Sequence record: PZ445419.1
Length of the DNA stretch: 44,882 nucleotides
Direction: 5' to 3' (one strand)
From: a phage
Shown here: piece by piece, positions 1,397-39,283 of the stretch
How the letters are laid out: every line of letters starts with the position of its first letter
Numbering within the stretch: the first letter of the stretch is position 1
The notes under the pieces: generated by a model
The model's input: the letters and a program-made list of their open reading frames with translations, nothing else
Told to the model about the DNA's origin: nothing
Databases searched by the model: none
Made by a program: the position numbers and the translations under genes

Positions 1397-2917
1397 ATGA
1401 CCGTTAACGTTGACAACCAGCACCCGCTCTATGCGCGCATCGCGCCAGAGTGGAAAATGATCCGTGACTGCGTAGCAGGGGAGCGCGCCGTGAAGGCGTG
1501 CGGCCCCTTATACCTGCCACACCCAGCCAGTGGCGACAACACTGACCCGAAAGCACGGGCGCGGTATAAGGCGTACAAGCAACGCGCTGTATTCCTGAAC
1601 GCCACCGCCCGCACACTTAACGCGCTGTTAGGCGTTGCCTTTGCTAAACCGGTAAGTCTCGACCTTTCCGGGGCGATGGCGGACCTTATTGACGACGTAG
1701 ACGGCAGTGGTATGCCGCTGCCGCAACTCCTGCGCGGTGCTATGTCAGAAGTGCTGCAATCAGGTCGTGCGGGCTTTATGGTGGACTACGATCGCCAGGC
1801 GCATTTTGATGAACTGGGTAACGTAGTGCCGCAGACCGCCGCGGAGATGGCGTCACACCGCCCGCTTATCCGCCTGTACTCGGCAGAACAGATCATCAAC
1901 TGGCGGCAGACCCACGGCGTCGATACGCTAATTGTGCTGAAGGAAACGGACGAAATCAGCACCGAAGACCCGGACGACTTCGCAAACCACGAAGTAACAA
2001 TCTGGACCGAGCTTCGCATGATTAACGGCGCTGCACACGCCCGCCGCTGGTTCTACAACGCGGACACGTCCGAGGTGCAAATGGACTTGCCGCGTGGATT
2101 CACCCGCACCGACCTTGTACCGCTGGTGGATGCTGCCGGTAATGCGCTGACACAACTTCCGTTTTGCTGGTGTGGCGCGGTAGACAACAACGCGACGCCT
2201 GACGCCGCGCCGCTGGCGGATATTGCGTCCATCAACATTAAGCACTACAACGCCGAAGCGGACGTCGCCGAGATTGCGCACATCGTGGGCCAACCTACCC
2301 TGGTTGCGACAGGCTTGACTCAATCGTGGGCGGACAAAAACCTGAAAGGCGGCATCGCGCTCGGAGCTACTAAGGGCGTTATCCTGGGTCAGAACATGGA
2401 CGCTAAACTGATCCAGGCCGAGGAGCGCAACTTGTCTGTTGCACTGTGTGAGCGCCGCGAATTGCAAATGGCTAAACTGGGCGCAGCCCTGGTTGAGAAG
2501 GGGACCGCACCTAAGACGGCAACCGAGGCGGCCTATGATGCGCAGACTGATAACAGTATCCTGTCGCTTATTGCCGGTAACGTTGAGAAGGCTTTCAACC
2601 GTGCGCTGCAAATCGTGCAGCTATTCACGGGCGACACCGCTGATCAACGCGTAACGCTGAATAAGTTCTACACCGAGATCACGGTTGATGCGCAGCTTAT
2701 GACCGCGATGATGTCGGGTGTGCAGACTGGTACGGTCCGCCTGGCTGATTTCATCAAGTGGATGATGGCGCAGGGGGTCATCGACGACTCGCAAACCGTC
2801 GAGCAGGTGGAAGACGAATTGCGAAATCAGAATCCATTGCCTCAAATGTCCCCTGATGCGGTAGAATCTACCGAAGAAGACCCGGACAAGGTAGCGGACA
2901 ATGGCGAAGACAATTAA
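1397..2917 (+). CDS. portal protein
   Basis: 506-aa ORF directly after terL with AAGGA RBS; size, position and acidic C-terminal tail are typical of portal proteins. Confidence 0.75.
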   Translation: MTVNVDNQHPLYARIAPEWKMIRDCVAGERAVKACGPLYLPHPASGDNTDPKARARYKAYKQRAVFLNATARTLNALLGVAFAKPVSLDLSGAMADLIDDVDGSGMPLPQLLRGAMSEVLQSGRAGFMVDYDRQAHFDELGNVVPQTAAEMASHRPLIRLYSAEQIINWRQTHGVDTLIVLKETDEISTEDPDDFANHEVTIWTELRMINGAAHARRWFYNADTSEVQMDLPRGFTRTDLVPLVDAAGNALTQLPFCWCGAVDNNATPDAAPLADIASINIKHYNAEADVAEIAHIVGQPTLVATGLTQSWADKNLKGGIALGATKGVILGQNMDAKLIQAEERNLSVALCERRELQMAKLGAALVEKGTAPKTATEAAYDAQTDNSILSLIAGNVEKAFNRALQIVQLFTGDTADQRVTLNKFYTEITVDAQLMTAMMSGVQTGTVRLADFIKWMMAQGVIDDSQTVEQVEDELRNQNPLPQMSPDAVESTEEDPDKVADNGEDN

Positions 2918-4004
2918 TCAACATTTGGCGGATCGAATGATTCGCCGTCACATCTTCACCCAGCGCCTGAGCAATGAACAGGCGCGGAGGGTGCTGGCTA
3001 TGTGGGAGAAGTTCCGGCCCACTTTACTTGGTAAGCTGACCGAGTTACTTGATGGCAAAAAGTCCATGAGCAACAAGGCACTTACCACACTGTTAACCCA
3101 AATCGACAAGACCGTCAAAACGGAACTGCGCGCCGAGTTTAAAGTGCTGGCGGAGAGCCTTCAGGAGTTCGCCGACACCGAGGCTGATTATCTCGCGGAC
3201 ACACTAACGGCAGCGATCCAGCCCGCGGTCGCCGTACCAGCGGTTGAGGTGGTGGGTGTAGTGACTGGCGCGCAGATTGCAGCGACGGCAATGAAAAACC
3301 CGTTCCAGGGTAATACGATGATGCAATGGCCTGATTCACTTTCCGAGTGGACCAGGACGCAGATCGGCAATCAGGTGCGCGCTGGATTCATCCAGGGCAA
3401 GCCGACGATGGAAATTATTGCGGACGTGAGGCGCGCGCTAGGCGGTCGTAGTGCGCAAGCAATCTCAAGCGTTGTTAAGTCCGCGGTCAACCACTATGCG
3501 GCGACCGCCCGCGAATTAATGGTAAAAGCTAATGACGATATTCTCGAAGGTCGCCAATGGTTGGCTACATTGGACACGCATACTTCTCCCATGTGCCAGC
3601 TACGCGATCGCCTGTTTTATCCGGTTGATGTTACTCCCGACACCAAAGGAAAACGCGGCGGGAAAGTGGTGGCGGGATCACAATATGGCGCTGGTCCGGG
3701 CAAGCTGCATTATTGCTGCCGATCGACGGAGACGTGGAAAGTTAAGGGCATGGAAGATTGGCCCAGTGGTAAGCGTCCGGCACTGAAGGCTGACGCGGGC
3801 AGGTTGCTGAGTGAGCAGGTCGACGCGCAGACTGATTTCTTCTCGTGGGTGCAGCGCCAGCCGCGCCATATCCTGGAGGAGTTATATGGAGTGCAACGCG
3901 CCGACCAGATTATGCGCGGCGTGAAAGTGCCGAAGATGTTTACCGATACGGGCGAACTAATGACTATTGCGCAGCTTAAAAACCGGGGGCTATGGCGTGA
4001 TTAA
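2901..4004 (+). CDS. head morphogenesis protein (SPP1 gp7 / Mu F-like)
   Basis: 367-aa ORF overlapping the portal 3' end; position and sequence character match minor head/morphogenesis proteins. Confidence 0.6.
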   Translation: MAKTINQHLADRMIRRHIFTQRLSNEQARRVLAMWEKFRPTLLGKLTELLDGKKSMSNKALTTLLTQIDKTVKTELRAEFKVLAESLQEFADTEADYLADTLTAAIQPAVAVPAVEVVGVVTGAQIAATAMKNPFQGNTMMQWPDSLSEWTRTQIGNQVRAGFIQGKPTMEIIADVRRALGGRSAQAISSVVKSAVNHYAATARELMVKANDDILEGRQWLATLDTHTSPMCQLRDRLFYPVDVTPDTKGKRGGKVVAGSQYGAGPGKLHYCCRSTETWKVKGMEDWPSGKRPALKADAGRLLSEQVDAQTDFFSWVQRQPRHILEELYGVQRADQIMRGVKVPKMFTDTGELMTIAQLKNRGLWRD

Positions 4005-4305: not shown

Positions 4306-4438
4306 ACCGCCTTGCACCTTTGAGAATGCCTCGGCAGATCCAGACGAAGACTTGCTGGTTGATGTTAAAAATATGGAATGCGGGGCTAAGCTAAGGGCGC
4401 AAGTGCTGGATTTGCAGAAAATAATTCGGGGGCCGTAA
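4208..4438 (+). CDS. o-spanin (Rz1-like), outer-membrane lipoprotein
   Basis: 76-aa ORF starting inside the Rz-like gene in the +1 frame and extending past it; signal peptide with lipobox-like LMMSAC; Pro-rich mature part with Cys residues. Confidence 0.5.
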   Translation: MLRVLTVLIAVLMMSACGSSKAPSTPLTESVYRPPCTFENASADPDEDLLVDVKNMECGAKLRAQVLDLQKIIRGP

Positions 4439-4451
4439 TGGCCCCCCTTTT
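4428..4451. terminator. intrinsic terminator hairpin between convergent genes
   Basis: Perfect 7-bp G/C stem GGGGGCC-gtaat-GGCCCCC followed by CTTTT on the plus strand; U-rich (GAAUUAUUUUC) after the stem on the minus strand; the Rz1-like stop codon lies in the loop. Confidence 0.6.
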
Positions 4452-10118: not shown

Positions 10119-10142
10119 GGGGCCAGCAAGGCCCCTTTTTTT
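10119..10142 (+). terminator. intrinsic terminator after major tail gene
   Basis: GGGGCC-agcaa-GGCCCC followed by TTTTTTT. Confidence 0.65.
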
Positions 10143-15284: not shown

Positions 15285-16025
15285 ATGTTAACGAAGAAGG
15301 TTAAAAGCGATATCGCCGCACACGTCGCGGCATGTCTGCCGGAAGAAGCCTGCGGCCTGGTTGTCATGGTGGGCCGTAAGCAAGTATTCGTCCCGTGCCT
15401 TAACGTGTTTGAAGACCCCACCGGCGCGCGCTCGCGAAAGGACGCGTTTACAATTAGTGATATGGCCTGGATGGATGCCGAGGATATGGGCGACGTAGTG
15501 CGCGTAGTCCACTCGCACCCAGGTCAGCGCGAGTTAACCCCGTCGTTGGGCGACGTTAACGGATGCAACGGCAGCGGCGTCGTCTGGACCATCACTAACG
15601 AATATGGCGACTTTATCGAGATCGACCCGGAAGACCCGCCGCTGGTGGGTCGCCGATTTGTTCTCGGAATTACGGATTGTTATGGCCTCGTTATGGACTG
15701 GCACAAAAAGCAGGGAGTAAATTTGCCAGACTTCCGCGTGCCGTACAACTGGTGGGAGACCGGGGAGAACCTGTACATGGATAACTGGTACGGTGCAGGC
15801 TTCAGAGAATGCGAGGAGAATACGCCTGGGGCGATGGTCATCATGCAGATTAGCGCGCCAGTGCCTAACCATGCCGGAATCTACCTTCCGGGCAACCAAC
15901 TACTACACCATATCTACGGCAGCCTGTCGAGCGTGATACCCTTCCGGGCAGGATTTTTCCGCGACAATGTGGTTAAATGGGTACGTCATAAAGACCTACC
16001 GGGGAATATCACAGAATGGCAATGA
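15285..16025 (+). CDS. tail assembly protein (lambda gpK-like, JAB/MPN plus NlpC/P60-like)
   Basis: 246-aa ORF with JAMM-like metal motif HSHPGQRELTPSLGD and a downstream Cys/His-containing region. Confidence 0.7.
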   Translation: MLTKKVKSDIAAHVAACLPEEACGLVVMVGRKQVFVPCLNVFEDPTGARSRKDAFTISDMAWMDAEDMGDVVRVVHSHPGQRELTPSLGDVNGCNGSGVVWTITNEYGDFIEIDPEDPPLVGRRFVLGITDCYGLVMDWHKKQGVNLPDFRVPYNWWETGENLYMDNWYGAGFRECEENTPGAMVIMQISAPVPNHAGIYLPGNQLLHHIYGSLSSVIPFRAGFFRDNVVKWVRHKDLPGNITEWQ

Positions 16026-16633
16026 CCACATTTAAATTGTACGGCGTCTTAGGACGTCGTTTTGGTAAAGTGCATAAGCTGGACTGCTTCACTCCGGGCG
16101 AGGGTATCACCGGCCTGTGCGTGAAGTTACCCGGCTTACAGGACTTTCTAATGTCGGCCCACCTGGACAATATGATGTTCAAGGTGCGCAAAGGCGACCA
16201 CACGATGACCGGCTATGATGAGCTGGGCGAGTTCCACGGCAACCGCGTAGTGACCATCGCGCCGGTTATGACTGGTGCAAAAAGCGGACTGGGCCAATTG
16301 CTGGCGGGTGTAGCAATCGTGGTGGCGTCGTTCTATACCGGCGGGCTTGCGACTGCCGCTTTCGGAGCTTCAGCCGCAACCGCGGCCTCTATCGGCGCAG
16401 CGACGTTTTCGTTCGGGATGTCGATGGCGCTGGGGGGCGTTATGCAATTGTTATCACCGCAACCGAAAGGATTGCAGACACGGCAGGACGTGGATAACAA
16501 GGCGTCGTACGCGTTTGGCGGACCGGTGAACACAACCGCGCAAGGCACGGCACTTGGTGTATTATGGGGCGAGCGTGAGATCGGCGGCGCTATTATTTCA
16601 GCCGGAATCGTAACCGAGGACTTGAACGAATGA
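16016..16633 (+). CDS. tail assembly protein (lambda gpI-like)
   Basis: 205-aa ORF with Gly/Ala-rich hydrophobic C-terminal half, overlapping K-like and J-like genes. Confidence 0.6.
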   Translation: MAMTTFKLYGVLGRRFGKVHKLDCFTPGEGITGLCVKLPGLQDFLMSAHLDNMMFKVRKGDHTMTGYDELGEFHGNRVVTIAPVMTGAKSGLGQLLAGVAIVVASFYTGGLATAAFGASAATAASIGAATFSFGMSMALGGVMQLLSPQPKGLQTRQDVDNKASYAFGGPVNTTAQGTALGVLWGEREIGGAIISAGIVTEDLNE

Positions 16634-19600
16634 CGATTATCTACGACGTCACTGGGCATAAAGGCGGCGGCGGCAAACAGCACACCCCGCAGGAAACGCC
16701 GGATAGCCTGCATTCCCTGGCTAAAATCCGCATCTTGCTTGCGCTAGGGGAAGGGGAATTCGAAAGTATTACCAGCGCAAGCGAATTGCGGCAGCGTGTA
16801 TACCTGGACGGCACGCCGATCCAGAACGCCGACCTGTCGGAAAACTTCCCCGGCGCTCGTGTGGAGTTCCGCCCCGGCACACAGCACCAGGATGTGATCC
16901 ACGGATTTTCAGCGGTGGAAAGTGAGCAGTCAGTCGGAGTAAAACTGGAAAACGGCACGCCGTGGGTGCGCCAGATTAATGACACCAGTCTTGACGCCGT
17001 GCGCATTCGAATCGGCATTCCAGCTCTGTACACAAACGAAGATAATGGCGACCTGGTGGGCGGGCGCATCGACTATAAGATCGTTGTGTATACGGATAAC
17101 GCAGACCCGCGTGAGTTCAGATTCGCCGCCGTTGGTAAAACAATGTCGCTATATGAGCGCGACCACCGCATCGAATTACCGCCGAACGTGAATACCGGCT
17201 GGCGGGTGGAGGTGCACCGCATAACGGCAGATTCCACATCGGCGAAAGTGGTGAACGATATTCAGGTACAATCAATCACTGAGATTATCGACGCCCGCCT
17301 GCGATACCCGCTAACCGCGCTGTTGTTCGTGGAGTTCGACGCTAAAGCGTTCCAGAACATCCCGCGCGTATCCATTAAGTGTAAAGGCCGCAAAGTGCTG
17401 GTTCCGAACAACTACGACCCGATTAATCATACCTATTCGGGCGACTGGGACGGTACGTTTAAACGCGCATGGACGGATAACCCCGCGTGGCACTGGTACG
17501 ATATTTGTATTACTGAGCGCTTCGGCCTCGGTCGGCGTATCAAACCGCAAATGTTAAACCGCTACGCGCTTTACCAGATTGCGCAGCGCTGCGATCAGCT
17601 GGTCAGTGACGGCAACGGCGGACGGGAAATCAGATTTAAGAATGATATGTACATCCAGTCACAGACGGATGCCTGGACCGTGCTTAAGGATTTAGCCGCT
17701 ATCTTTGCCGGTATGACCTGGTGGGGAAATCAGATGTTGAATATCGTCAGTGACCAACCGGTCGCAGCGGTGTCGCACACTATCACCAACGCCTCTGTCA
17801 TTGATGGTCGATTCGACTACGCATCTGGCAGCCAGAAAACTCGCTATTCCACATTCGCGGTAGCATACGGCAATCCGAAAAACCACTACGAAGACGCCAT
17901 CGCAACGGGCCAACGTGTCGAACTGGTGCGCCGCCATAAGATTAACCGTCTTGATATCACGGCGATCGGCTGTACGCGTGAGTCAGAAGCGCAACGACGT
18001 GGGCACTGGGCGCTAATCTCCAACCAGCTTGACCAGCAAGTTAGCTTTAAGGTTGGCATGGAGGGACTTTTCTTTATTCCGGGTAGCGTAGTCGCGATCG
18101 CGGATACAAACATTTCTGGCGGCTTCGAGACACGCGGCGGTCGCCTGTTGTCAGATCCTGGCACGCGGACTGTGCTGAACACAGACAGCGAAATCACGTT
18201 CCGCCCTGGGGATAAATTCCTGGTACGCACCGATAGCGGTAATGTGGAGACTCGCGAGATTGCCAGCGTCAACGGCAACAAGGTTACGCTAAAAACCGCA
18301 CTGGACGCCGACCCGATTCCTGATCAGCCGTTTTGCGTCGATGGCAACGATATCCAGTTGCAGAAGTTCCGCATCACCGACCTGGAATATGACGACTCTA
18401 CCAGCACTTTTTCAGTGCGCGGGATCGAATACAACGATAGCAAATATGATGCCGTTGATAATGGCGCTCGCCTTGACCCAGGCATCTTTACGCAAGTTCC
18501 TGACGGCGTAATGAAGGGGCCGGAGTCCGTGACCATTACCCCGTCGCAGATTTCATCGCAAGGCCAGCTAATCACCAACGTGGATATTGTGTTCCCGCCG
18601 GTGAAGGATGCCGTTGTTTATGAGATCCAGTGGCGACGTACCAGCTTGCAGAATATGGCGGTACAGTGGGGAAACGACTGGGTAAACATCCCACGTACGG
18701 CATCGAACGGCGCGCACATCCCTAACGTGTTTTCAGGCAATTATCAGGCACGCGTCCGCGCGATCGGTATGGGCGAGATTTCATCCCCGTGGGTGTCTTC
18801 TGCCATCACGCCGGTGGAAGGTCGTCTCGGCGGTCTTAACGCGCCTATCATCACCAACGCGATTTCGGGCCTTCACCAGATTTTGTGGAAGTGGAACCAC
18901 AATAACGCCGCGACGGATATTTCGTATACCGAGCTTGAGGTCCGCAAGACGGGCGAAACGGAATGGAAGTTCTTAACCAACGTCCCATATCCAGGGGCGG
19001 AGTATGCACAAACGTCGCTGGAGTTCGGCATCTATCAGCAGTTGCGCGCCCGTGTAGCGGATAAAATCGGCAACCTGTCGGACTGGTCGGACCCGTTTGA
19101 AGGGCAGGTGAGTGACAATGTTGACGAGTATATGAAGGGGCTGGACGACGAGTTCTTGACTTCTGAGGACGGTAAACGCTTCCAGGAAGCGATCGACACC
19201 ATGCCGCAAGGCATTTATGAGGCTATGCTCACCGACGCACAGCAATTGTTTAACGCCCGCGCCGAGTACAAGGGGATTTATGCAGAAATCTCGGTCGCGT
19301 ATAACGTGGCGGCAGATGCCCACCAGGCGGTAGCGCAACTGGAAACGTTGATCGGTACTCGCCTTGACGATGCGGAAGCGGCAATCCACACGTTGCAGAC
19401 CGCGCAGAGTACGCAGGAACAAGCGTTCGCCCAGTACCAGCAAACGGTTGCCGCTAAGTTTTCGGAACAGGAAGCCGCCATCCAGTCAGTGCAAACGGCA
19501 ACGGCGGACGTAGCGGGCGCTCTGGCGGAGTATAAGACCCAGGTCGCGGCACAGTTCGGTCAGCAGTCCGCCGCGATCGAGCAGAAGATGACGTCTTCGT

Positions 19601-20076
19601 TTAACCACTCCGGTGGTAGCGCAACGTACAGCCTTAAGGCGGGCGTGACGTACAACGGGACTTACTACGATGCAGGTATGCAGCTTTCCGTTGTGACGTC
19701 GGGCAGCGCTGTTAAATCCCGCATCGCGTTCAAGGCGGACCAGTTCTACATCATGCACCCGTCTAACGGCACTCTGTCGTCTGCGTTCATTGTTGACGGT
19801 GGGACAGTGTATATTGACACGGCACGCATCAAGAACGCGTCCATAAACTTCGCGCAGATCACGGACACGCTGCAATCGAATAACTTCGCATCAGGGTCAC
19901 GCGGCTGGCGTATCTGGAAAGGCGGCGCTGCGGAGTTTAACGAAGTAACGGTCCGCGGCAACCTGTACGCCACATCGGGTAACTTCGGGTTTTCTGGTGG
20001 GACCGTGACGATCGATAAGACAGGCGTAAACGTTCCGTTACCCGGCGGGGGACGGGTGAAAGTGGGGACTTGGTAA
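16630..20076 (+). CDS. central tail fibre / host specificity protein (lambda gpJ-like)
   Basis: 1148-aa ORF at the end of the tail-tip block, followed by a terminator. Confidence 0.8.
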   Translation: MTIIYDVTGHKGGGGKQHTPQETPDSLHSLAKIRILLALGEGEFESITSASELRQRVYLDGTPIQNADLSENFPGARVEFRPGTQHQDVIHGFSAVESEQSVGVKLENGTPWVRQINDTSLDAVRIRIGIPALYTNEDNGDLVGGRIDYKIVVYTDNADPREFRFAAVGKTMSLYERDHRIELPPNVNTGWRVEVHRITADSTSAKVVNDIQVQSITEIIDARLRYPLTALLFVEFDAKAFQNIPRVSIKCKGRKVLVPNNYDPINHTYSGDWDGTFKRAWTDNPAWHWYDICITERFGLGRRIKPQMLNRYALYQIAQRCDQLVSDGNGGREIRFKNDMYIQSQTDAWTVLKDLAAIFAGMTWWGNQMLNIVSDQPVAAVSHTITNASVIDGRFDYASGSQKTRYSTFAVAYGNPKNHYEDAIATGQRVELVRRHKINRLDITAIGCTRESEAQRRGHWALISNQLDQQVSFKVGMEGLFFIPGSVVAIADTNISGGFETRGGRLLSDPGTRTVLNTDSEITFRPGDKFLVRTDSGNVETREIASVNGNKVTLKTALDADPIPDQPFCVDGNDIQLQKFRITDLEYDDSTSTFSVRGIEYNDSKYDAVDNGARLDPGIFTQVPDGVMKGPESVTITPSQISSQGQLITNVDIVFPPVKDAVVYEIQWRRTSLQNMAVQWGNDWVNIPRTASNGAHIPNVFSGNYQARVRAIGMGEISSPWVSSAITPVEGRLGGLNAPIITNAISGLHQILWKWNHNNAATDISYTELEVRKTGETEWKFLTNVPYPGAEYAQTSLEFGIYQQLRARVADKIGNLSDWSDPFEGQVSDNVDEYMKGLDDEFLTSEDGKRFQEAIDTMPQGIYEAMLTDAQQLFNARAEYKGIYAEISVAYNVAADAHQAVAQLETLIGTRLDDAEAAIHTLQTAQSTQEQAFAQYQQTVAAKFSEQEAAIQSVQTATADVAGALAEYKTQVAAQFGQQSAAIEQKMTSSFNHSGGSATYSLKAGVTYNGTYYDAGMQLSVVTSGSAVKSRIAFKADQFYIMHPSNGTLSSAFIVDGGTVYIDTARIKNASINFAQITDTLQSNNFASGSRGWRIWKGGAAEFNEVTVRGNLYATSGNFGFSGGTVTIDKTGVNVPLPGGGRVKVGTW

Positions 20077-20082
20077 ATGCGA

Positions 20083-20104
20083 AGGGGCCATCCGGCCCCT
20101 TTTT
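20083..20104. terminator. terminator hairpin between convergent genes (near-identical to 23198-23221)
   Basis: AGGGGCC-atcc-GGCCCCT followed by TTTT; 3 bp after the J-like stop and overlapping the stop of the minus-strand gene. Confidence 0.65.
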
Positions 20105-21068
20105 AATACATATTCGGGATGACGAGTAGCGGGGTAGGTACGGCAATATTTTTACCTGGCATCTGGAATTGCCGCCGTGAGTAGTTGCCGATGACGCGGT
20201 TTTTAGCGACGCGCACATTATTACCCGCCATGCGTATCCCGTTCATTCGAACGTGGTTATAGCCCCCGTTGTTCTGAATCAGCGCGCCGGTGTATGAAAG
20301 CTGGATCAGGCTGTTTCCAATATTCTGGTCGCTCGTTCCGATGTTAATAGTGCGGTCATATACGAACGGCTTGTTCACCGTCGAGAACGTGACCTGATTC
20401 TGGTTATTCGTCATGGTGATGCCAGTCCCCGGAGTGGGGGGTGTATTGTTGAATATTACAAGGTCCATGTCCACCGAAGCCGCCACATCGTCGATGCCAC
20501 CGTAGGACGCGTTGCGGACGATAATACTGCCGCCATCGAAGCCTACTGATACGTTGCCGTCATCCCAGCGGGCGAACGGAACACCACTAACAGGCAAGGC
20601 CATACTCCCGTTGACGCGCACGCGCTTTGCGTATCTGCAGGTCATCAGCTTCGCCACGTTGGATATTGCGGTGAAGTCCGTCGAGTTTGCCACCAGTAAA
20701 CCAGCGTTACGCGACCCAACCGGCAGCACTTCCATTATGACGCCCGCCCATTGTGGTAAACCAGAGTACGCGCCATACGCATCATCCCCGCGCAGGGTTA
20801 TTCCGCTATTACCGTTGCGCGTAACCGACGTAACGTAAAACGGATCGGGTATTACCAGGGTCTGGTCGAATACCTCAATCACTTCTACCGGGCGAGTGAG
20901 AGCGACGACGACCTGCGACCCCGCCGTAAGAGGGGTGTTAATGGTTAGCGTCTTGTTGGACTGTGCCCGCTGGTTAAAGCTGGTGCAGTATGACGGCGCG
21001 CGAAGTCCCGCGGTGATCTCCATGCGCGGTCTTCCGTCGTTATAGTCGATAAGTATTCCAGCGCCCAT
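20103..21068 (-). CDS. hypothetical Asn/Gly/Ser/Thr/Val-rich beta-type protein (possible receptor-binding or exclusion partner)
   Basis: 321-aa ORF from ATG 21068 with GGGAG RBS (track starts at GTG 21077); opposite strand to the tail genes, directly downstream of the lipoprotein gene; no catalytic motif recognised. Confidence 0.55.
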   Translation of the reverse strand: MGAGILIDYNDGRPRMEITAGLRAPSYCTSFNQRAQSNKTLTINTPLTAGSQVVVALTRPVEVIEVFDQTLVIPDPFYVTSVTRNGNSGITLRGDDAYGAYSGLPQWAGVIMEVLPVGSRNAGLLVANSTDFTAISNVAKLMTCRYAKRVRVNGSMALPVSGVPFARWDDGNVSVGFDGGSIIVRNASYGGIDDVAASVDMDLVIFNNTPPTPGTGITMTNNQNQVTFSTVNKPFVYDRTINIGTSDQNIGNSLIQLSYTGALIQNNGGYNHVRMNGIRMAGNNVRVAKNRVIGNYSRRQFQMPGKNIAVPTPLLVIPNMY

Positions 21069-21070
21069 TA

Positions 21071-21292
21071 TTACCACTCCCGTGATTTAACTGATACTGT
21101 GCCTGAGAAATTGCCGTCGCTATCTGAAGACAGCCCCGTGAATCGCATGTCCACATCTCCTGCCGGGACTTTTTGCCCATCAACGTAGCGCAACATGCAG
21201 CTACCGTACGCAACCGTAATGCAATCGCCGTTGTTGCGTTCTACGGCGCAACCGGATAAAAGAACCGCACAAATCATAATTAAAGTTTTCAT
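21071..21292 (-). CDS. small lipoprotein; candidate Cor/Llp-type superinfection-exclusion protein
   Basis: 73-aa ORF with signal peptide and lipobox MKTLIMICAVLLSGC, AGGGGA RBS; reverse-oriented next to receptor-recognition genes. Confidence 0.6.
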   Translation of the reverse strand: MKTLIMICAVLLSGCAVERNNGDCITVAYGSCMLRYVDGQKVPAGDVDMRFTGLSSDSDGNFSGTVSVKSREW

Positions 21293-21372
21293 GGTATCAT
21301 CCCCTATATTTGGTTGAGTTTTAGTATTACACCGCTCAACCAGGATTGCAACCAATTTAAGAGGATTCAGCT

Positions 21373-23193
21373 ATGGCAGCGGGTACGCTATCGGTAACGA
21401 ATAATAGCAAGGCGGTAGTAGGGGTCGGCACAACGTTTACCGCGTTTAAAGCGGGCGACTTCTTAACGCTGGTGGTAGGACAAGTCCCATACACCGTGGC
21501 AATCGCGTCCATTGAAAGCGCAACCGCGCTCACGCTGGTACTGCCGTTCGACGGCCCAACGGCAACCGGCCTTGCGTGGGATGGCGTTAAGCGCGATACC
21601 ATGTCGCTGGCAACGATGGGCGTTACCGTACAGGCCCAAAAAGCATTGCGCTTGATGATTGCAGATGAAAACAACTGGCGTGCAATCTTCGGCGATGCTG
21701 AAGAAATCACAGTCACGCTCCCGAACGGGCAAGTTATGCAGGGTATGTCGTGGGGCTACCTGTCGTCTTTGCTGAAGGAAGTAGACCCCGTTGAGATGCG
21801 CAACCTGCAACAACAAGCCGCCGCATCGGAAGCAGCCGCGCAAGGATTCCGTAACGAGGCGGAAGGCTTCAAGAACGACGCCAACACCATCAAGACGCAG
21901 ACCAGCCAACTTAAGGCAGATACGCAGGCGATCAAGGACCAGACCACTCAACTTAAGGCAGATACGCAGGCGATCAAGGACCAAACGAATCAGATCAAGA
22001 CTGACACTGGCGTTATTCGTGATGAAGCCAATACCGCGAAGGAGGACGCGCAAGCTGCCCGCACTGCCGCGCAAGGATTTCGCAATGAGGCCGAACAATT
22101 CGCTAATAGTGTTAACCCGGAAAACCTACTTGCGAAGGCCAACAACTTAAGTGATGTTGCGGATGTGGCTGTGGCGCGCGAAAACATTGGTGTAGACCGC
22201 CTAACGCAAAACATAACCAGCGGCGAAACACAAATCAGGACTGCGGCGAAGAATAAATGGATCTTCGTTAAGGAAAATGGCGACTGGGGCGGGTGGGATA
22301 ATGCCAACAATAAAGCCATGCCGCTGCCGATTGCATTCGGTGGTACGGGGCGCGGCGATAACGTCGCCGAGTTCCGCCAATTCAAATCAAACGGCGACAC
22401 CCAAGATGGGTTAATCATTACGCAGAACGGGTCTGGATTTGGTGGTGTATGCTGGGGGGATTCCGCCGATAAAGTACGCTGGCGCATGGGGATTAACGAC
22501 GCCGCGGGTAATTTTAAGTTGCACTCATATGACGCGTCGGGCGCGTACCGCGATACCTTTATGGAGATCTCTGGATCGGGGATAAGCGGCATGGTGTGTC
22601 ATCGAGATATCACGGTCCGCCCAACAGCGACAGCTCCAGTGTTGTCTTTCGTCCTAAACAACGGAAAAGCTACCGTCCCGGCTGGTAACGTCCGCACGAT
22701 GTGGGATACGGTTAGTATCAAGAGTAACCTGATCTATAAATATTTTGAGAAGGGAGACGGCACTGGCTTCACAGTCAACTGGCCCTCATCTGGTGGTGTT
22801 ATTGCCCTCCAGGGTACATCGGGGCGGGACTTTAAGAAAGATATTACCGACGCGGACGTTACAGAAGCGGTTGCACGCATTGAACAAATGCGCATGGTGC
22901 GCTACGTGTATAAGGACGATGTGCAGGAGCGCGTCCGCTTCGGCATCATTGCCGAGGAAGCAGAAGAGATTGCGCCTCAATACATCAAACACCGTGAGGA
23001 GACGTACGATGTGGAGGTGGACCCCGAGACTAACGCTATCATCGGCGGTAAAACCCGAGACAGGCCATCGGTGGACGTAAACCCGATCGTTATGGATTTA
23101 ATGGGGTGCGCACAATATGCGATCGCTGAGTGTAAACGCCTGGCGGCGGAAGTGGAGGATTTGAAAGCCGAGATCGCGGCGTTGAAGAAATAA
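21373..23193 (+). CDS. side tail fibre protein with possible C-terminal intramolecular chaperone domain
   Basis: 606-aa ORF with Q/T/K-rich tandem repeats (QLKADTQAIKDQT x2) and a C-terminal region resembling self-cleaving S74-type fibre chaperone domains; followed by a terminator. Confidence 0.7.
   Translation: MAAGTLSVTNNSKAVVGVGTTFTAFKAGDFLTLVVGQVPYTVAIASIESATALTLVLPFDGPTATGLAWDGVKRDTMSLATMGVTVQAQKALRLMIADENNWRAIFGDAEEITVTLPNGQVMQGMSWGYLSSLLKEVDPVEMRNLQQQAAASEAAAQGFRNEAEGFKNDANTIKTQTSQLKADTQAIKDQTTQLKADTQAIKDQTNQIKTDTGVIRDEANTAKEDAQAARTAAQGFRNEAEQFANSVNPENLLAKANNLSDVADVAVARENIGVDRLTQNITSGETQIRTAAKNKWIFVKENGDWGGWDNANNKAMPLPIAFGGTGRGDNVAEFRQFKSNGDTQDGLIITQNGSGFGGVCWGDSADKVRWRMGINDAAGNFKLHSYDASGAYRDTFMEISGSGISGMVCHRDITVRPTATAPVLSFVLNNGKATVPAGNVRTMWDTVSIKSNLIYKYFEKGDGTGFTVNWPSSGGVIALQGTSGRDFKKDITDADVTEAVARIEQMRMVRYVYKDDVQERVRFGIIAEEAEEIAPQYIKHREETYDVEVDPETNAIIGGKTRDRPSVDVNPIVMDLMGCAQYAIAECKRLAAEVEDLKAEIAALKK
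21906..21989 (+). repeat. 42-bp in-frame tandem duplication inside the tail-fibre gene
   Basis: CAACTTAAGGCAGATACGCAGGCGATCAAGGACCA present twice in tandem with minor changes. Confidence 0.6.
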
Positions 23194-23197
23194 TTAG

Positions 23198-23221
23198 AAG
23201 GGGCCATGCGGCCCCTTTTTT
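23198..23221. terminator. terminator hairpin between convergent genes (near-identical to 20083-20104)
   Basis: AAGGGGCC-atgc-GGCCCCTT followed by TTTTTT; lies between the fibre stop (23193) and the stop of the minus-strand early operon (23220). Confidence 0.7.
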
Positions 23222-23795
23222 AGTTTGAGTTTTCCCAATCCATTTTGCGCCGCACCAGGGGGCTTTCGTAGTATTCCTTTCCTTCCACTTCCAATAAAGG
23301 CCAGTCATTAACAATCACGTATGGCTCCGCAATATCCTCGATCACGCCATGCGCGCTTTGCGGCCCTAACGACACACCAACCAGGATAACACCGGCAACA
23401 CGACGGGCAAGATACTCGCGAGCGCAGCGTGCCTCTACCAGTCCGCGACGGATGCCGCTGGTGGCCTTAACTTCGTAGGTCCATACGGCATCGATCACAT
23501 GCTCGCGGAAGTCTGGACCGGTCTTAACCTTGCGTTTGCCAACCATGATGATATCGCCGCGGTCAATGGTATTGGCGCTAAACAAGCCGGTACGCATAAG
23601 CAAACCTTGCGGTATGCAACTACGCCCGCCCGCCTGCCCTTCAAGGTACATGCCTGCAAACATCTCGCCCAGCACACCGACAAGACGGCTTTGCTTGCAC
23701 GCGTCAGACTTGTATCTCCACTGGTCAAACTCGATGCTTGCTATCATTGCCGCCAGGTGGAATTGTTTACCAGATATTTCGTATTCGCCGTACAT
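23220..23795 (-). CDS. hypothetical protein (possible PD-(D/E)XK-like motif)
   Basis: 191-aa ORF, last gene of the minus-strand block; D...EVK spacing in IDAVWTYEVKAT is reminiscent of a nuclease motif, weak. Confidence 0.45.
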   Translation of the reverse strand: MYGEYEISGKQFHLAAMIASIEFDQWRYKSDACKQSRLVGVLGEMFAGMYLEGQAGGRSCIPQGLLMRTGLFSANTIDRGDIIMVGKRKVKTGPDFREHVIDAVWTYEVKATSGIRRGLVEARCAREYLARRVAGVILVGVSLGPQSAHGVIEDIAEPYVIVNDWPLLEVEGKEYYESPLVRRKMDWENSN

Positions 23796-23837
23796 TGTGG
23801 ATCCTTCATTGATGCGGGCCGAAGCCCGCTATTAGCA

Positions 23838-24359
23838 TTATTTAAGTGCGCCAGTCACCAGTGTTTTTTCCATGTTACGGAAATCTTCCTGCGTCATGCA
23901 GATTTTCGATCCGTCTTCGCCGGTGAGTACGACCATAGGCTGGACGTCCTGGGATACGACGCCGAAATCGGCGGCTTTGACAGTCTTGCCCGCAGATGCC
24001 GAAGGACGCCACGTTCCGCCGGTGGAGATGGGCCAGCCTTTGAGGCTGTCGAATTGTGCTGCCGTTGTATCGATCTGAATCTCGTCATGCACGGTCATGT
24101 AAGACTCACCCAGCAGTGCGGCATATGCTACCAGGTCAACGATGTTATCGTCCTGGTGCTTACGGTGCTGGCGTACCAGCTTCAGGCAGATCAGGAAGGT
24201 CCAGGCTTCTTGCTCGGTAAGGTCGCGACCGGTAAGCGCGTTAAACACGGCAGCGATCTGCTTAGCACTGCGTTCTTCTTTCGCGTTGTCATAGCCATTC
24301 TCTTTCCCGCGCTGTTCCATAGTGGTGGCGGCGTTTTTGCAGTATTCGTATGCTTTCAT
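23838..24359 (-). CDS. hypothetical protein
   Basis: 173-aa ORF with AAAGGAAA RBS directly downstream of a palindromic promoter/operator. Confidence 0.55.
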   Translation of the reverse strand: MKAYEYCKNAATTMEQRGKENGYDNAKEERSAKQIAAVFNALTGRDLTEQEAWTFLICLKLVRQHRKHQDDNIVDLVAYAALLGESYMTVHDEIQIDTTAAQFDSLKGWPISTGGTWRPSASAGKTVKAADFGVVSQDVQPMVVLTGEDGSKICMTQEDFRNMEKTLVTGALK

Positions 24360-24401
24360 GATGTTTTTCCTTTAGCGGGGCCGTATTGCCCCGACGAGTT
24401 A

Positions 24402-24431
24402 AATATAATGCAACCAACCTATTGGTTGCAA
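24402..24431 (-). promoter_or_regulatory. candidate sigma70-type promoter overlapping a palindromic ATTGGTTGC operator
   Basis: Minus strand TTGCAA-18 nt-TATATT; spacer is the perfect inverted repeat TGCAACCAA-tagg-TTGGTTGCA (24409-24430); GC hairpin in the leader at 24376-24395. Confidence 0.45.
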
Positions 24432-24889
24432 GTGAATTTTGCAACGTTAATTGCGTAAATTTTCGGGACCAGATCGCTGCACGCCCGACGAATTGCCGCG
24501 ATGTTCTTCGGGCAGTCCTCAATGATGACCAGTTCAGACACGTCCGCGTAGCAGACCATTTTGAACACGGCGCACGCCTTAAACTCAGGCGGTGGGGTGT
24601 CGTCCAACATGTGGCGCATAAACAACCGGCCTGTCGGGAATACTTCCAGTTGCTCGGCGGTAGTCTCCCAACATTCGCGCTGCCGGTTAGTCAGATACGC
24701 TATCTCGAAGCCTTGCTCTTTGTACATGCGCAGCAGCGGCAGCATATCCATGTTCAGGTCTTCGCGGACGTGCGCTTTGTGCCACTTTGCCCAAAAGGTT
24801 GATTTCGTTTTTATGCCCGGCACCAGGTCGGCGCGTGCATCACTCGAACCATTAATAACGCCATCCAAATCGCAAATCAGTAATTTCAT
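24419..24889 (-). CDS. HAD-superfamily phosphatase-like protein
   Basis: 156-aa ORF beginning MKLLICDLDGVING (HAD motif I DxDGx). Confidence 0.55.
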   Translation of the reverse strand: MKLLICDLDGVINGSSDARADLVPGIKTKSTFWAKWHKAHVREDLNMDMLPLLRMYKEQGFEIAYLTNRQRECWETTAEQLEVFPTGRLFMRHMLDDTPPPEFKACAVFKMVCYADVSELVIIEDCPKNIAAIRRACSDLVPKIYAINVAKFTCNQ

Positions 24890-25110
24890 TTTAAGCTCTC
24901 AATAAGGGTTTCTCGGGCGCTTCGCGCAGTAAAGGAGTTGCATACGAAATGGCAACGCTGGGTCATGACAAGCCAACCGGTGAGATCAAGGCCCATGATG
25001 CGTCCGGGGTGAGACGCGCGCACCACATGATTGCGTCGCGGGTCAATGCCGTAGTCTTTTTGCATTTGGTCTACGACCGCTGGGTCGCGGTCAACGATTA
25101 AGATATTCAA
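24886..25110 (-). CDS. hypothetical protein
   Basis: 74-aa ORF, translationally coupled to neighbours on the minus strand. Confidence 0.4.
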   Translation of the reverse strand: MNILIVDRDPAVVDQMQKDYGIDPRRNHVVRASHPGRIMGLDLTGWLVMTQRCHFVCNSFTARSARETLIESLK

Positions 25111-25576
25111 GGAGTTCTCCTTCGCTCATTATTTCAATTTGTGCGCTGCCGATTGGTGGCGCTTCGTCAAATATTATCAATTGCTGGCACTTGTTATTGC
25201 TTGGCCCGACTTCGCCGGTGACGGCGTGAATGAATCTAATCCGCCAGTCCAGAAGAATTATCAGGTTTGCAGTCTTCCTGGCCAGCTTCGCCCACTTCGT
25301 CGACGTATCCTGATTCAGTAGCATGACCGTCCGGCGTCCGTGCGCTGCGCACTCTACCCACGGCAGCGGATCGGAATACGGCGGATTGCACCACTTCCAC
25401 CCTTTCAACTCGGACCAGTCCACATCAAGCGCGCTGTGTTCCGCCGTGAAGTAACGCGGTAGCAGATGATTGGCGTCGCTTGCCGCCATATCGTAACGGA
25501 ATCGGTACTTCCGACGAAGCGGTTTAAATAAAGCTGGCGGCGTGCGCCAGCTATCTTTTTGCTCACTCTTCTGCAT
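25091..25576 (-). CDS. dam: DNA N6-adenine methyltransferase (phage Dam-like)
   Basis: 161-aa ORF with WRTPPALF, DMAASDANHLLPRYFT and the catalytic NPPY motif (WCNPPYSD). Confidence 0.75.
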   Translation of the reverse strand: MQKSEQKDSWRTPPALFKPLRRKYRFRYDMAASDANHLLPRYFTAEHSALDVDWSELKGWKWCNPPYSDPLPWVECAAHGRRTVMLLNQDTSTKWAKLARKTANLIILLDWRIRFIHAVTGEVGPSNNKCQQLIIFDEAPPIGSAQIEIMSEGELLEYLNR

Positions 25577-26021
25577 GATCTGGATCTATCGCGTACAGGG
25601 CAATTTTCTTGTCGCTGGACAGAACGCGCCGGACTCGGGCCATATCCGCCGGACCCAGCGGTCGGCTATCGGAATAGTAGCTGCCGTTAGCACGCCACGC
25701 TATCAGCACCAGATCTTTCCGGTCGATCTTAGACTGGCGGCCCTTCGGGCGCACGTATTCCTCGGCCCGTTTGCAATGCTCGCGCAGACCTTCGGCAGTG
25801 ATGCGGTTTAGTGCAACGCTGGTTGTGTATCCGGTGCGCTGCATAATCCCCATCAATTCGAAAAGCAGTTCGAAGCGCTCCTCTAGCTCCTGGCGCACTT
25901 TCTTCTCACCTTCATATAGCGCCTGTTTGGTGTCCGCCAGCGCGTTCGCACGTTCGGCCTGTTCGCGGGCTTCGAGGCATTGCGCGGCCCAGTAATTTTT
26001 CTCTTCTTGTAAAATTTTCAT
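25563..26021 (-). CDS. hypothetical protein
   Basis: 152-aa ORF with coiled-coil-like N-terminus. Confidence 0.5.
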   Translation of the reverse strand: MKILQEEKNYWAAQCLEAREQAERANALADTKQALYEGEKKVRQELEERFELLFELMGIMQRTGYTTSVALNRITAEGLREHCKRAEEYVRPKGRQSKIDRKDLVLIAWRANGSYYSDSRPLGPADMARVRRVLSSDKKIALYAIDPDHAEE

Positions 26022-38758: not shown

Positions 38759-38867
38759 ATTGGTTGCCTATATGGGAATCCCCATATCGCTAAACGATTA
38801 ATTTGTGCGCGAATTGGTTGCCATTTTGAGTGTTTTTATCTGGTCGCATTGGTTGCCGTGTAGCGTG
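38759..38867 (+). repeat. three direct ATTGGTTGCC motif copies in an AT-rich spacer
   Basis: Exact copies at 38759-38768, 38813-38822 and 38858-38867; the first is followed by the palindrome TATATGGG-aat-CCCCATAT. Confidence 0.7.
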
Positions 38868-38907
38868 ATTATTATGAATAGTTATGCAATAAAACTGCAT
38901 AAAGTAA

Positions 38908-39069
38908 GCGGGACAGAAAGCGGGACAGACATGGGGCGGGACAAAGCGGGACAGCACCCCCGTCCCGCCCCGGATGGCGCGGCCTGGCGTGGGGCGGGAC
39001 AAGCGGGACAAACCCCAGTCTTTCAGACTAGACGGGGGTCAATGGCCCCCCTCGTCTGAGACTGAATAA
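38908..39069. repeat. iteron-like GCGGGACA array ending in the conserved 57-bp palindrome (module copy 2)
   Basis: Six direct GCGGGACA/CGGGACA copies plus an inverted GTCCCG copy; 38930-39069 is homologous to the 3' part of 10840-11156. Confidence 0.8.
39013..39069. repeat. 57-bp palindromic element, copy 2 (identical to 11100-11156)
   Basis: Same 57-nt sequence as copy 1, base for base. Confidence 0.8.
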
Positions 39070-39224
39070 AATCCGGGGATTGCAAAATACACGGCAGCAT
39101 GAGGCGAAGTGCGGTCGCGGATGAACTTGGCAACCAATGCGGGTTGTATTATGCTGAGTGAAAAATGCGGTTTGCAGTCACAGCAGATAGCGATCAACTT
39201 TTTCATGCGCATGATTAATATTGG

Positions 39225-39253
39225 TTGCATTCGTTCCAGCACCCTGCTAGATT
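39225..39253 (+). promoter_or_regulatory. candidate promoter for the rightward small-gene operon with ATTGGTTGCA motifs
   Basis: TTGCAT-17 nt-TAGATT; motif copies at 39220-39229 and 39251-39260; leader ATTGGTTGCACACCAACAAGAGGAC closely matches the moron leader at 5217-5250. Confidence 0.45.
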
Positions 39254-39283
39254 GGTTGCACACCAACAAGAGGACTGCACAAA

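Follow-up and report, generated by a model that had tools for sequence, protein, structure and literature searches.

Near-identical hairpins flanking the receptor-binding and fibre genes of Escherichia phage Oekolampad are probable transcription terminators

The biology of receptor-binding protein (RBP) and lateral tail fibre (LTF) loci in small siphoviruses is already published (PMC8594841, PMC12685063). The locus treated in the relevant passages of these two papers is the very one considered here, that of Escherichia phage Oekolampad (Bas18, MZ501095.1, Dhillonvirus, BASEL collection). The stretch of DNA that we analyzed, referred to below as the window, covers the whole genome of this phage, 44,882 bp in length (100% match over the query), and is rotated such that a window coordinate equals the record coordinate minus 551. 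Two near-identical repeats, T1 on the left (20081-20104) and T2 on the right (23197-23220), flank the RBP and fibre genes. In the passages of both papers covered here, neither the flanking terminator hairpins nor their mutual similarity is discussed.

Two further systems invite comparison. A stem-loop between convergent E. coli genes is reported to position polymerase collisions and to drive bidirectional termination (bioRxiv 10.1101/2022.10.23.513370). In T4-type phages, PeSL (promoter-early stem-loop) cassettes mediate modular shuffling; they consist of a strong sigma-70 promoter and a stem-loop, number about 50 per genome and cluster in hyperplastic regions; the junctions of indels fall on the motif, and mini-circles were also detected (PMC2839356, PMC4122927). 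An earlier note on this DNA had read T1 and T2 as bidirectional terminators and, additionally, as direct repeats at which the whole host-range module between them is exchanged. We infer, with good confidence, that T1 and T2 are Rho-independent terminator hairpins, each occupying almost the entire 26-nt spacer between two convergent genes. Terminator function as such is likely; termination in both directions is plausible, with the - strand looking weaker.

T1 (GAAGGGGCCATCCGGCCCCTTTTT) and T2 (GAAGGGGCCATGCGGCCCCTTTTT) agree at 23 of 24 positions, the sole difference being the third base of the loop (C at 20092, G at 23208). A search of the whole 44,882-nt window for the 24-mer with up to three mismatches returned these two sites only (T1 with no mismatch, T2 with one), exactly the pair that the earlier note had reported. 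The 24-mer was matched in none of 100 dinucleotide-preserving shuffles of the window, a test that is blind to function; each repeat consists of a hairpin and a T-tract only and nearly fills its spacer, and the likeness between the two ends at the borders of these elements. The two hairpins are:

20081-20104, no strand assigned: putative terminator hairpin T1, with a GC stem at 20084-20089/20094-20099, the loop ATCC at 20090-20093, then TTTTT
23197-23220, no strand assigned: putative terminator hairpin T2, with a GC stem at 23200-23205/23210-23215, the loop ATGC, then TTTTTT

Both fold into a 6-bp G/C stem, to which two further A-U pairs can be added, with a tetraloop that falls in no special tetraloop class. 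The minimum free energy on the + strand is -17.3 kcal/mol for T1 and -17.8 kcal/mol for T2, and 0 of 200 shuffles were as stable; over both strands, the fold energies range from -15.7 to -17.8 kcal/mol (z = -2.4 to -3.95). Straight after the GC stem comes a run of T on the + strand, with a length of 5 at T1 and of 6 at T2. The convergent spacers measure exactly 26 nt each (20077-20102 for T1, 23194-23219 for T2), and also 26 nt in relatives. T1 lies between the + strand gene of the J-like tail tip protein (J) and the - strand RBP gene bas18_0025, T2 between the + strand LTF gene and the - strand gene bas18_0028, and each hairpin is common to both transcripts. The GC stem begins 7 nt past the J stop codon and 6 nt past the fibre stop codon, where gene orientation flips. 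At both sites the last two Ts of the T-tract overlap the stop codon of the leftward gene (TTA at 20103-20105 for the RBP gene, TTA at 23220-23222 for bas18_0028).

A stable GC stem-loop, a 3' U-tract on the + strand, a position at the 3' end of a transcription unit and a structure kept while the sequence varies are all found at T1 and T2. The record of phage WFI annotates their orthologues as putative terminators, and the records of Rogue1 and SA80RD annotate J/RBP-junction hairpins of different sequence as terminators. The description given by the earlier note proved accurate to this extent: the repeats lie between convergent transcripts, show terminator anatomy and bracket the lipoprotein cassette and the fibre gene, with bas18_0025, bas18_0026 and the LTF gene between them. 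An Rfam search of 19500-24000 at permissive thresholds returned no known RNA family, only a chance-level MicX match (19 bits vs a gathering threshold of 75). A scan for sigma-70-like promoters gave 9 sites, compared to 11.9 in shuffles, and none within the 26-nt spacers.

Read rightward, T1 would end the late tail operon after J and T2 the LTF transcript, and the predicted RNA is of the strong canonical form (6-bp G/C stem plus two A-U pairs, tetraloop, 5-6 U). Read leftward, the palindromic stem would form where two operons have their 3' ends, that of RBP and lipoprotein at T1 and the long leftward one at T2; there it may help to stop or position converging polymerases and to protect mRNA 3' ends. 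Leftward termination is probably less efficient, especially at T1, because the U-tract is imperfect in that direction: the - strand tail after the hairpin is UUCGCAUUUACC at T1 (also given as UUCGCAUUU) and UUCUAAUUAUUU at T2. The mirror arrangement of A-rich 5' and T-rich 3' flanks is thus only partial: it is clear at T2, but the upstream A-tract has a length of only 2 nt (GAA), which interrupts the leftward U-tract (UUC...). With the bidirectional terminators of E. coli and its phages, the Oekolampad hairpins share the GC palindrome, the tetraloop, the T-tract, the minimal convergent spacer and, in part, the mirrored flanks; they differ from them in the interruption of the leftward U-tract.

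The same stem is not confined to the RBP and fibre locus. GGGGCC-loop-GGCCCC with a T-tract occurs four times in the window, at T1, at T2 and at two further sites:

4429-4445, no strand assigned: third convergent-junction hairpin, GGGGCC-GTAAT-GGCCCC followed by CCTTTTG, flanked by the o-spanin gene (+) and bas18_0007 (-)
10119-10135, + strand: fourth same-stem hairpin, GGGGCC-AGCAA-GGCCCC followed by TTTTTTT, 3' of the major tail protein gene

The annotated +/- convergent junctions are o-spanin/bas18_0007, J/RBP and LTF/bas18_0028, and the stem is present at all three. Further, the exact design AAGGGGCC-N4-GGCCCCTTTT was found in at least 120 IMG/VR contigs; 119 of the 120 matches listed are without nucleotide similarity to the Oekolampad genome, and they span GC contents of 32-64%. 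Since the stem is common within the genome and in unrelated phages, any inference from the likeness of T1 and T2 alone is weakened. Judged by these occurrences, the T1/T2 sequence is a common terminator solution and the pair is not special. Their resemblance would be that of two instances of a design used at every convergent junction, and would not mark the limits of a mobile unit.

To follow both hairpins through related phages we used a sample of about 35 Dhillonvirus loci from GenBank, IMG/VR and metagenomes, in which T1 and T2 were located with BLAST anchors. Loci additional to the GenBank phages were fetched via a gp26-like protein (16 from IMG/VR and 13 from metagenomes), and several of them duplicate GenBank phages. 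The RBP loci fall into type A (the DUF6453 RBP cassette as in Oekolampad), type B (two + strand genes after J, followed by cor in - orientation), type C (HK578 and TheodorHerzl) and the arrangement of EP23, which has an extended J and is without a separate RBP.

In most of these relatives a T2 of the form (A)GAAGGGGCC-N4-GGCCCC-T(4-9) stands 3' of the fibre gene, whatever the fibre or RBP allele, with the loops ATGC, ATAC, GTGC, ACAC, GTAT, ATTC, ATGT, ATCC and AAAC. The 5' flanks are A-rich, and in one contig (L155) the site is perfectly symmetric (AAAAAAAAGGGCCATACGGCCCTTTTTTTT). Exceptions are slur05 with a stem mutation, L137, L138 and L155 with a 5-bp GGGCC stem, L150 with one mismatch (GGGGCC/AGCCCC), and NJ01 and L161 with different G4C hairpins. 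KarlBarth retains the left half alone (GAAGGGGCCATCC), followed by unrelated DNA (L016 9930-9964), and we therefore place a rearrangement junction, by deletion or replacement, inside the hairpin loop of this phage. KarlBarth is also missing the counterparts of the genes in window 23220-24860 and has extra fibre genes.

Among the genomes examined, T1 is confined to those of type A and to the non-Dhillonvirus phage XJA18 (50.5 kb), whose RBP is 80% identical and which carries AAGGGGCC-GACT-GGCCCCTTTT at the J/RBP junction. Its loops are ATCC, ATCT, AAAC and inversions of these, on a constant stem. Other RBP types have other hairpins in its place. Type B genomes carry AGGGGC-TTCG-GCCCCTTT after J (the right arm is elsewhere GCCCCT) and GCCCC-GAAA-GGGGC at the convergent junction, type C genomes AAAGCCCC-GCCA-GGGGCTTT at the J/RBP junction. 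Different hairpins are also found at this junction in the Seuratvirus SA80RD (RBP 75% identical) and in Rogue1 (42%). The type B hairpins (L007, L010, L011, L014, L016) have loops of the classic stable tetraloop kinds, C(UUCG)G in the hairpin that follows J and GAAA in the one at the convergent junction. As T2 accompanies any allele and T1 only type A, we therefore assign, from this distribution, T2 to the conserved Dhillonvirus backbone and T1 to the LptD-type RBP cassette, with which it moves.

Over about 25 genomes the loops vary on an invariant stem, at whose base L152 and L164 show one compensatory change from A-T to T-A. Among relatives that share the RBP type and have the stem unchanged, the T1 tetraloop occurs in both orientations, as ATCC/GGAT, ATCT/AGAT and AAAC/GTTT (L161, L164, LF50P3, LM40P1, 011D5 and NJ01, the last four being L005, L009, L173 and L174). 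L152 and L164 share the same 10-nt flanks on either side and differ only in a flipped T1 loop. These flips look like recurrent hairpin-loop inversions. They resemble the small inversions of plastid genomes, in which loops between short inverted repeats are flipped and the stem is kept (PMC12371153), and differ from them in that they concern phage terminators with stems of 6-9 bp.

Loop inversions need strand switching in a hairpin at the DNA level and have occurred at least three times at T1, and the stems are perfect palindromes containing GGCC. One could therefore regard the hairpins as acting mainly in DNA, as cruciform or pause sites or as recognition sites of a phage nuclease or methyltransferase. 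We consider this extremely improbable. Every copy has its T-tract on the strand of the upstream gene, exactly at the gene end, and other cassettes replace T1 by hairpins of different sequence and the same architecture, which fits a structural RNA signal and not a site for a sequence-specific protein.

Several observations weigh against the reading of T1 and T2 as terminators that are two instances of one widely used design. Termination at both sites is deduced from consensus features only. A scan with a consensus terminator model listed T2 on both strands and T1 on neither, because Ts are counted only from the end of the A-T-extended stem, and at T1 too few of them then remain. Both leftward tails deviate from a canonical U-tract. 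The match at three of four loop positions and the common GAA prefix exceed what a generic design needs, and in IMG/VR and metagenome contigs of a divergent Dhillonvirus clade (L147 and L163) T1 and T2 agree at all of 26 nt (GAAGGGGCCAAACGGCCCCTTTTTCA) and have AAAC as loop, which differs from both Oekolampad loops. Some shared history of T1 and T2, or occasional gene conversion between them, is possible on these grounds.

The stronger form of this idea is that T1 and T2 are paralogues in the strict sense: one site would have arisen as a copy of the other, for instance upon insertion of a cassette at a terminator, and occasional gene conversion would keep them alike. The identity in L147/L163, the only clear hint of concerted evolution between T1 and T2, would fit it, as would the inverted loop GTTT at T1 of their sister LM40P1, the usual T1 loop ATCC in T2 of LF50P3, and extra upstream bases common to a T1 and a T2 in CHD5UKE2, 011D5 and Psq-1. 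We permuted the T1-T2 pairings among 15 distinct genomes. An orientation-free loop distance was lower within genomes than in permuted pairings (P = 0.004); this measure is post hoc, and its value is probably owed largely to the LM40P1/L147 clade. Neither the flanks (P = 0.66) nor the loops taken in their given orientation (P = 0.57) were more alike within genomes than in permuted pairings. With only the post hoc loop measure low, we do not accept the permutation test as evidence of gene conversion. We also rejected, as weak, the extra flank ATGCGAA, which T2 of 011D5/Psq-1 has in common with T1, as a sign of T1-to-T2 transfer, since it is two substitutions from the common T2 flank CGAGAA. As the same hairpin design additionally arises in unrelated phages, we regard paralogy maintained by conversion as unlikely.

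The genes and the spacer around the two hairpins are:

16630-20076, + strand: J-like tail tip protein gene bas18_0024 (Pfam FNIII-A_GpJ, Phage_Tail_Tip, Phage-tail_3), last gene of the rightward tail operon
20103-21068, - strand: RBPOeko gene bas18_0025, 321 aa (Pfam DUF6453, E = 2e-121; PDB 9rpt_C, E = 3.7e-212)
21071-21292, - strand: superinfection-exclusion (SE) lipoprotein gene bas18_0026, 73 aa (Pfam Phage_lipoprotein, E = 1.8e-21; Rtp45-related, PDB 9rps_D, E = 2e-8)
21293-21372, no strand assigned: conserved 80-nt divergent spacer between lipoprotein and fibre genes, right-hand homology arm for RBP-cassette exchange
21373-23193, + strand: LTF gene bas18_0027, 606 aa, with a C-terminal Peptidase_S74 chaperone domain (Pfam)
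23220-23795, - strand: bas18_0028, 191 aa, phrog_10558, last gene of the long leftward operon and, with T2, the conserved right flank

As in other RBP/SE loci of small siphoviruses, the RBP gene adjoins the gpJ homologue downstream and is paired with a small lipoprotein gene. The match to 9RPT chain C spans all 321 residues of bas18_0025; in the passages of PMC12685063 covered here, this chain is the Oekolampad RBP solved in complex with LptDE, and bas18_0026 is the superinfection-exclusion lipoprotein of the locus. In the fibre gene, the part for N-terminal attachment is conserved (to about 21800-22130) and the distal part is variable; the Peptidase_S74 domain forms the C-terminus. That the interval has host-range content, as the earlier note had supposed, is supported by the 9RPT match, and the region is mosaic among relatives.

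If T1 and T2 were short conserved "linker" repeats for crossover, the RBP, lipoprotein and fibre genes should be exchanged as one block with its edges at the repeats. We mapped breakpoints by BLAST of each relative against window 16000-26000. Compared with type B and type C genomes, homology stops within J at 19885-19970 and restarts at 21244-21279, at the lipoprotein 5' end; T1 thus sits inside the exchanged RBP block, and no homology breakpoint fell at T1 in any of the about 35 relatives. The 14 type A relatives are collinear straight through T1 without an identity shift there; their shifts lie at about 19460-19550, at 19880-19975 (in J) and at about 20600 (in the RBP gene).

The strong mosaicism of the RBP/fibre region, the KarlBarth junction inside a T2-type hairpin, of which the left half was kept, and the position of T2 agree better with the linker idea. 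The variable part of the fibre begins at 21795-22130 and ends at 22800 or at 23141-23198, and T2 forms the left edge of the conserved right flank, with the junctions at 23141-23198 taking in the start of the motif. Homology restarts at 23182-23198 in StarDew, LM40P1, JL1, TheodorHerzl, SSL-2009a (L149) and L137/L153/L154, so that T2 is the first conserved sequence past unrelated fibre 3' ends in several comparisons. Because fibre stop and hairpin are only 3-13 nt apart in most genomes, this position is inseparable from variation that merely ends with the open reading frame (ORF), and T2 at the boundary is equally expected in that case.

RBP cassette and fibre are, moreover, found in different combinations. 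SECphi18 has the whole Oekolampad fibre allele (21245-26000, 91% identity) beside a type B cassette, and in WFI, slur05, JL1, StarDew and LF50P3 a type A cassette is combined with an unrelated fibre end. Maffei et al. likewise describe, in the part of their paper covered here, two separate dips of similarity: the first is at the RBP locus, the second lies in the fibre gene, beyond its far 5' end (PMC8594841). From these comparisons we conclude that RBP cassette and fibre assort independently and that the interval is not one module. Additionally, type B and type C genomes have no T1, the Oekolampad repeats share no unbroken run of identity longer than 11-12 nt, and a crossover between the direct repeats within one genome would delete the RBP that gives LptD receptor specificity. 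Exchange of the whole block at T1 and T2 is in our view very improbable.

The central proposal of the earlier note, exchange of the complete module at its direct repeats, was thus not borne out. Its expectation of two terminators conserved around variable content holds for T2 in most relatives and fails for T1, which occurs with the type A RBP only. Breakpoints at the repeats, which it had suggested looking for, are absent at T1 and cannot be told from the ORF end at T2, with the single KarlBarth junction in the loop. The comparison of relatives at these junctions gave a divided answer: other RBP types carry unrelated hairpins at the J/RBP junction, and mosaicism is nonetheless present.

PeSL cassettes are the closest precedent for the exchange idea, being a short conserved motif with a stem-loop terminator of G-tract and C-tract beside variable genes. 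In contrast to PeSL, the T1 and T2 spacers hold a hairpin and T-tract only, with no promoter part. Only four same-stem copies are present, two of which (4429 and 10119) lie in the conserved structural-gene half, far from the mosaic region, and breakpoints do not map to T1. A weaker version is that the palindromic terminators are recombination-active, with loops that flip, occasional conversion between T1 and T2 (L147) and rare internal junctions (KarlBarth), as a promoter-less counterpart of PeSL that contributes to host-range turnover at low frequency. We consider this quite unlikely; if true, the PeSL concept would reach beyond T4-type phages and take in small siphoviruses.

Returning to T1 and T2 as terminators, several further observations concern the genes that they delimit. 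The final ~110-190 nt of J vary along with the RBP type. Within type A, the last ~65 codons of J (19880-20076) co-vary with the RBP sub-allele (20106-21068), at about 71-79% vs 93-97% identity in the same genomes. A role of the J C-terminus as docking site of the RBP fits this pattern.

In the fibre, a segment at query 2845-3509 (window ~22444-23108) shows 87-89% nucleotide identity to ltfB of DT57C, a T5-like phage, and to the ADB-2 tail fibre, and exchange therefore also occurs within the fibre ORF and between phage families. A 42-nt (14-aa) tandem repeat in 2.3 copies is located at 21889-21983, in a coiled-coil part. The fibre gene of Sodalis phage SO-1 is 42 nt shorter because exactly one unit is missing. 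The region as a whole is present at 86-97% nucleotide identity in phage SO-1, Acinetobacter phage NJ01 and Campylobacter phage A131, whose deposited hosts are non-Escherichia; for SO-1 the identity is 97.3%, and RBP-gene identity is 95-99%. Either the LptD-type RBP works across genera or these host labels are doubtful.

The motif TGCAACCAAT occurs 20 times in the window with up to one mismatch (3.2 expected), for the most part between genes and frequently as two neighbouring copies in direct or inverted orientation (5240, 5254, 21347, 24409/24421, 26319/26336, 29281/29293, 35944, 38759-39260, 39960 and 42687/42710). One copy (21347-21356) falls within the divergent spacer that precedes the fibre gene. 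The motif is probably a binding site for a phage regulator or a promoter element.

For the biology of the phage, terminators at T1 and T2 would matter little beyond housekeeping: they would fix the boundaries of the transcription units around an experimentally characterized LptD-binding RBP. The natural seams at which RBP and fibre are swapped lie elsewhere, namely at the 3' end of J, at the lipoprotein 5' end together with the divergent spacer, in the fibre after its N-terminal domain and at the fibre 3' end. These seams are useful for engineering swaps of RBP or fibre, because the J C-terminus must move with the RBP.

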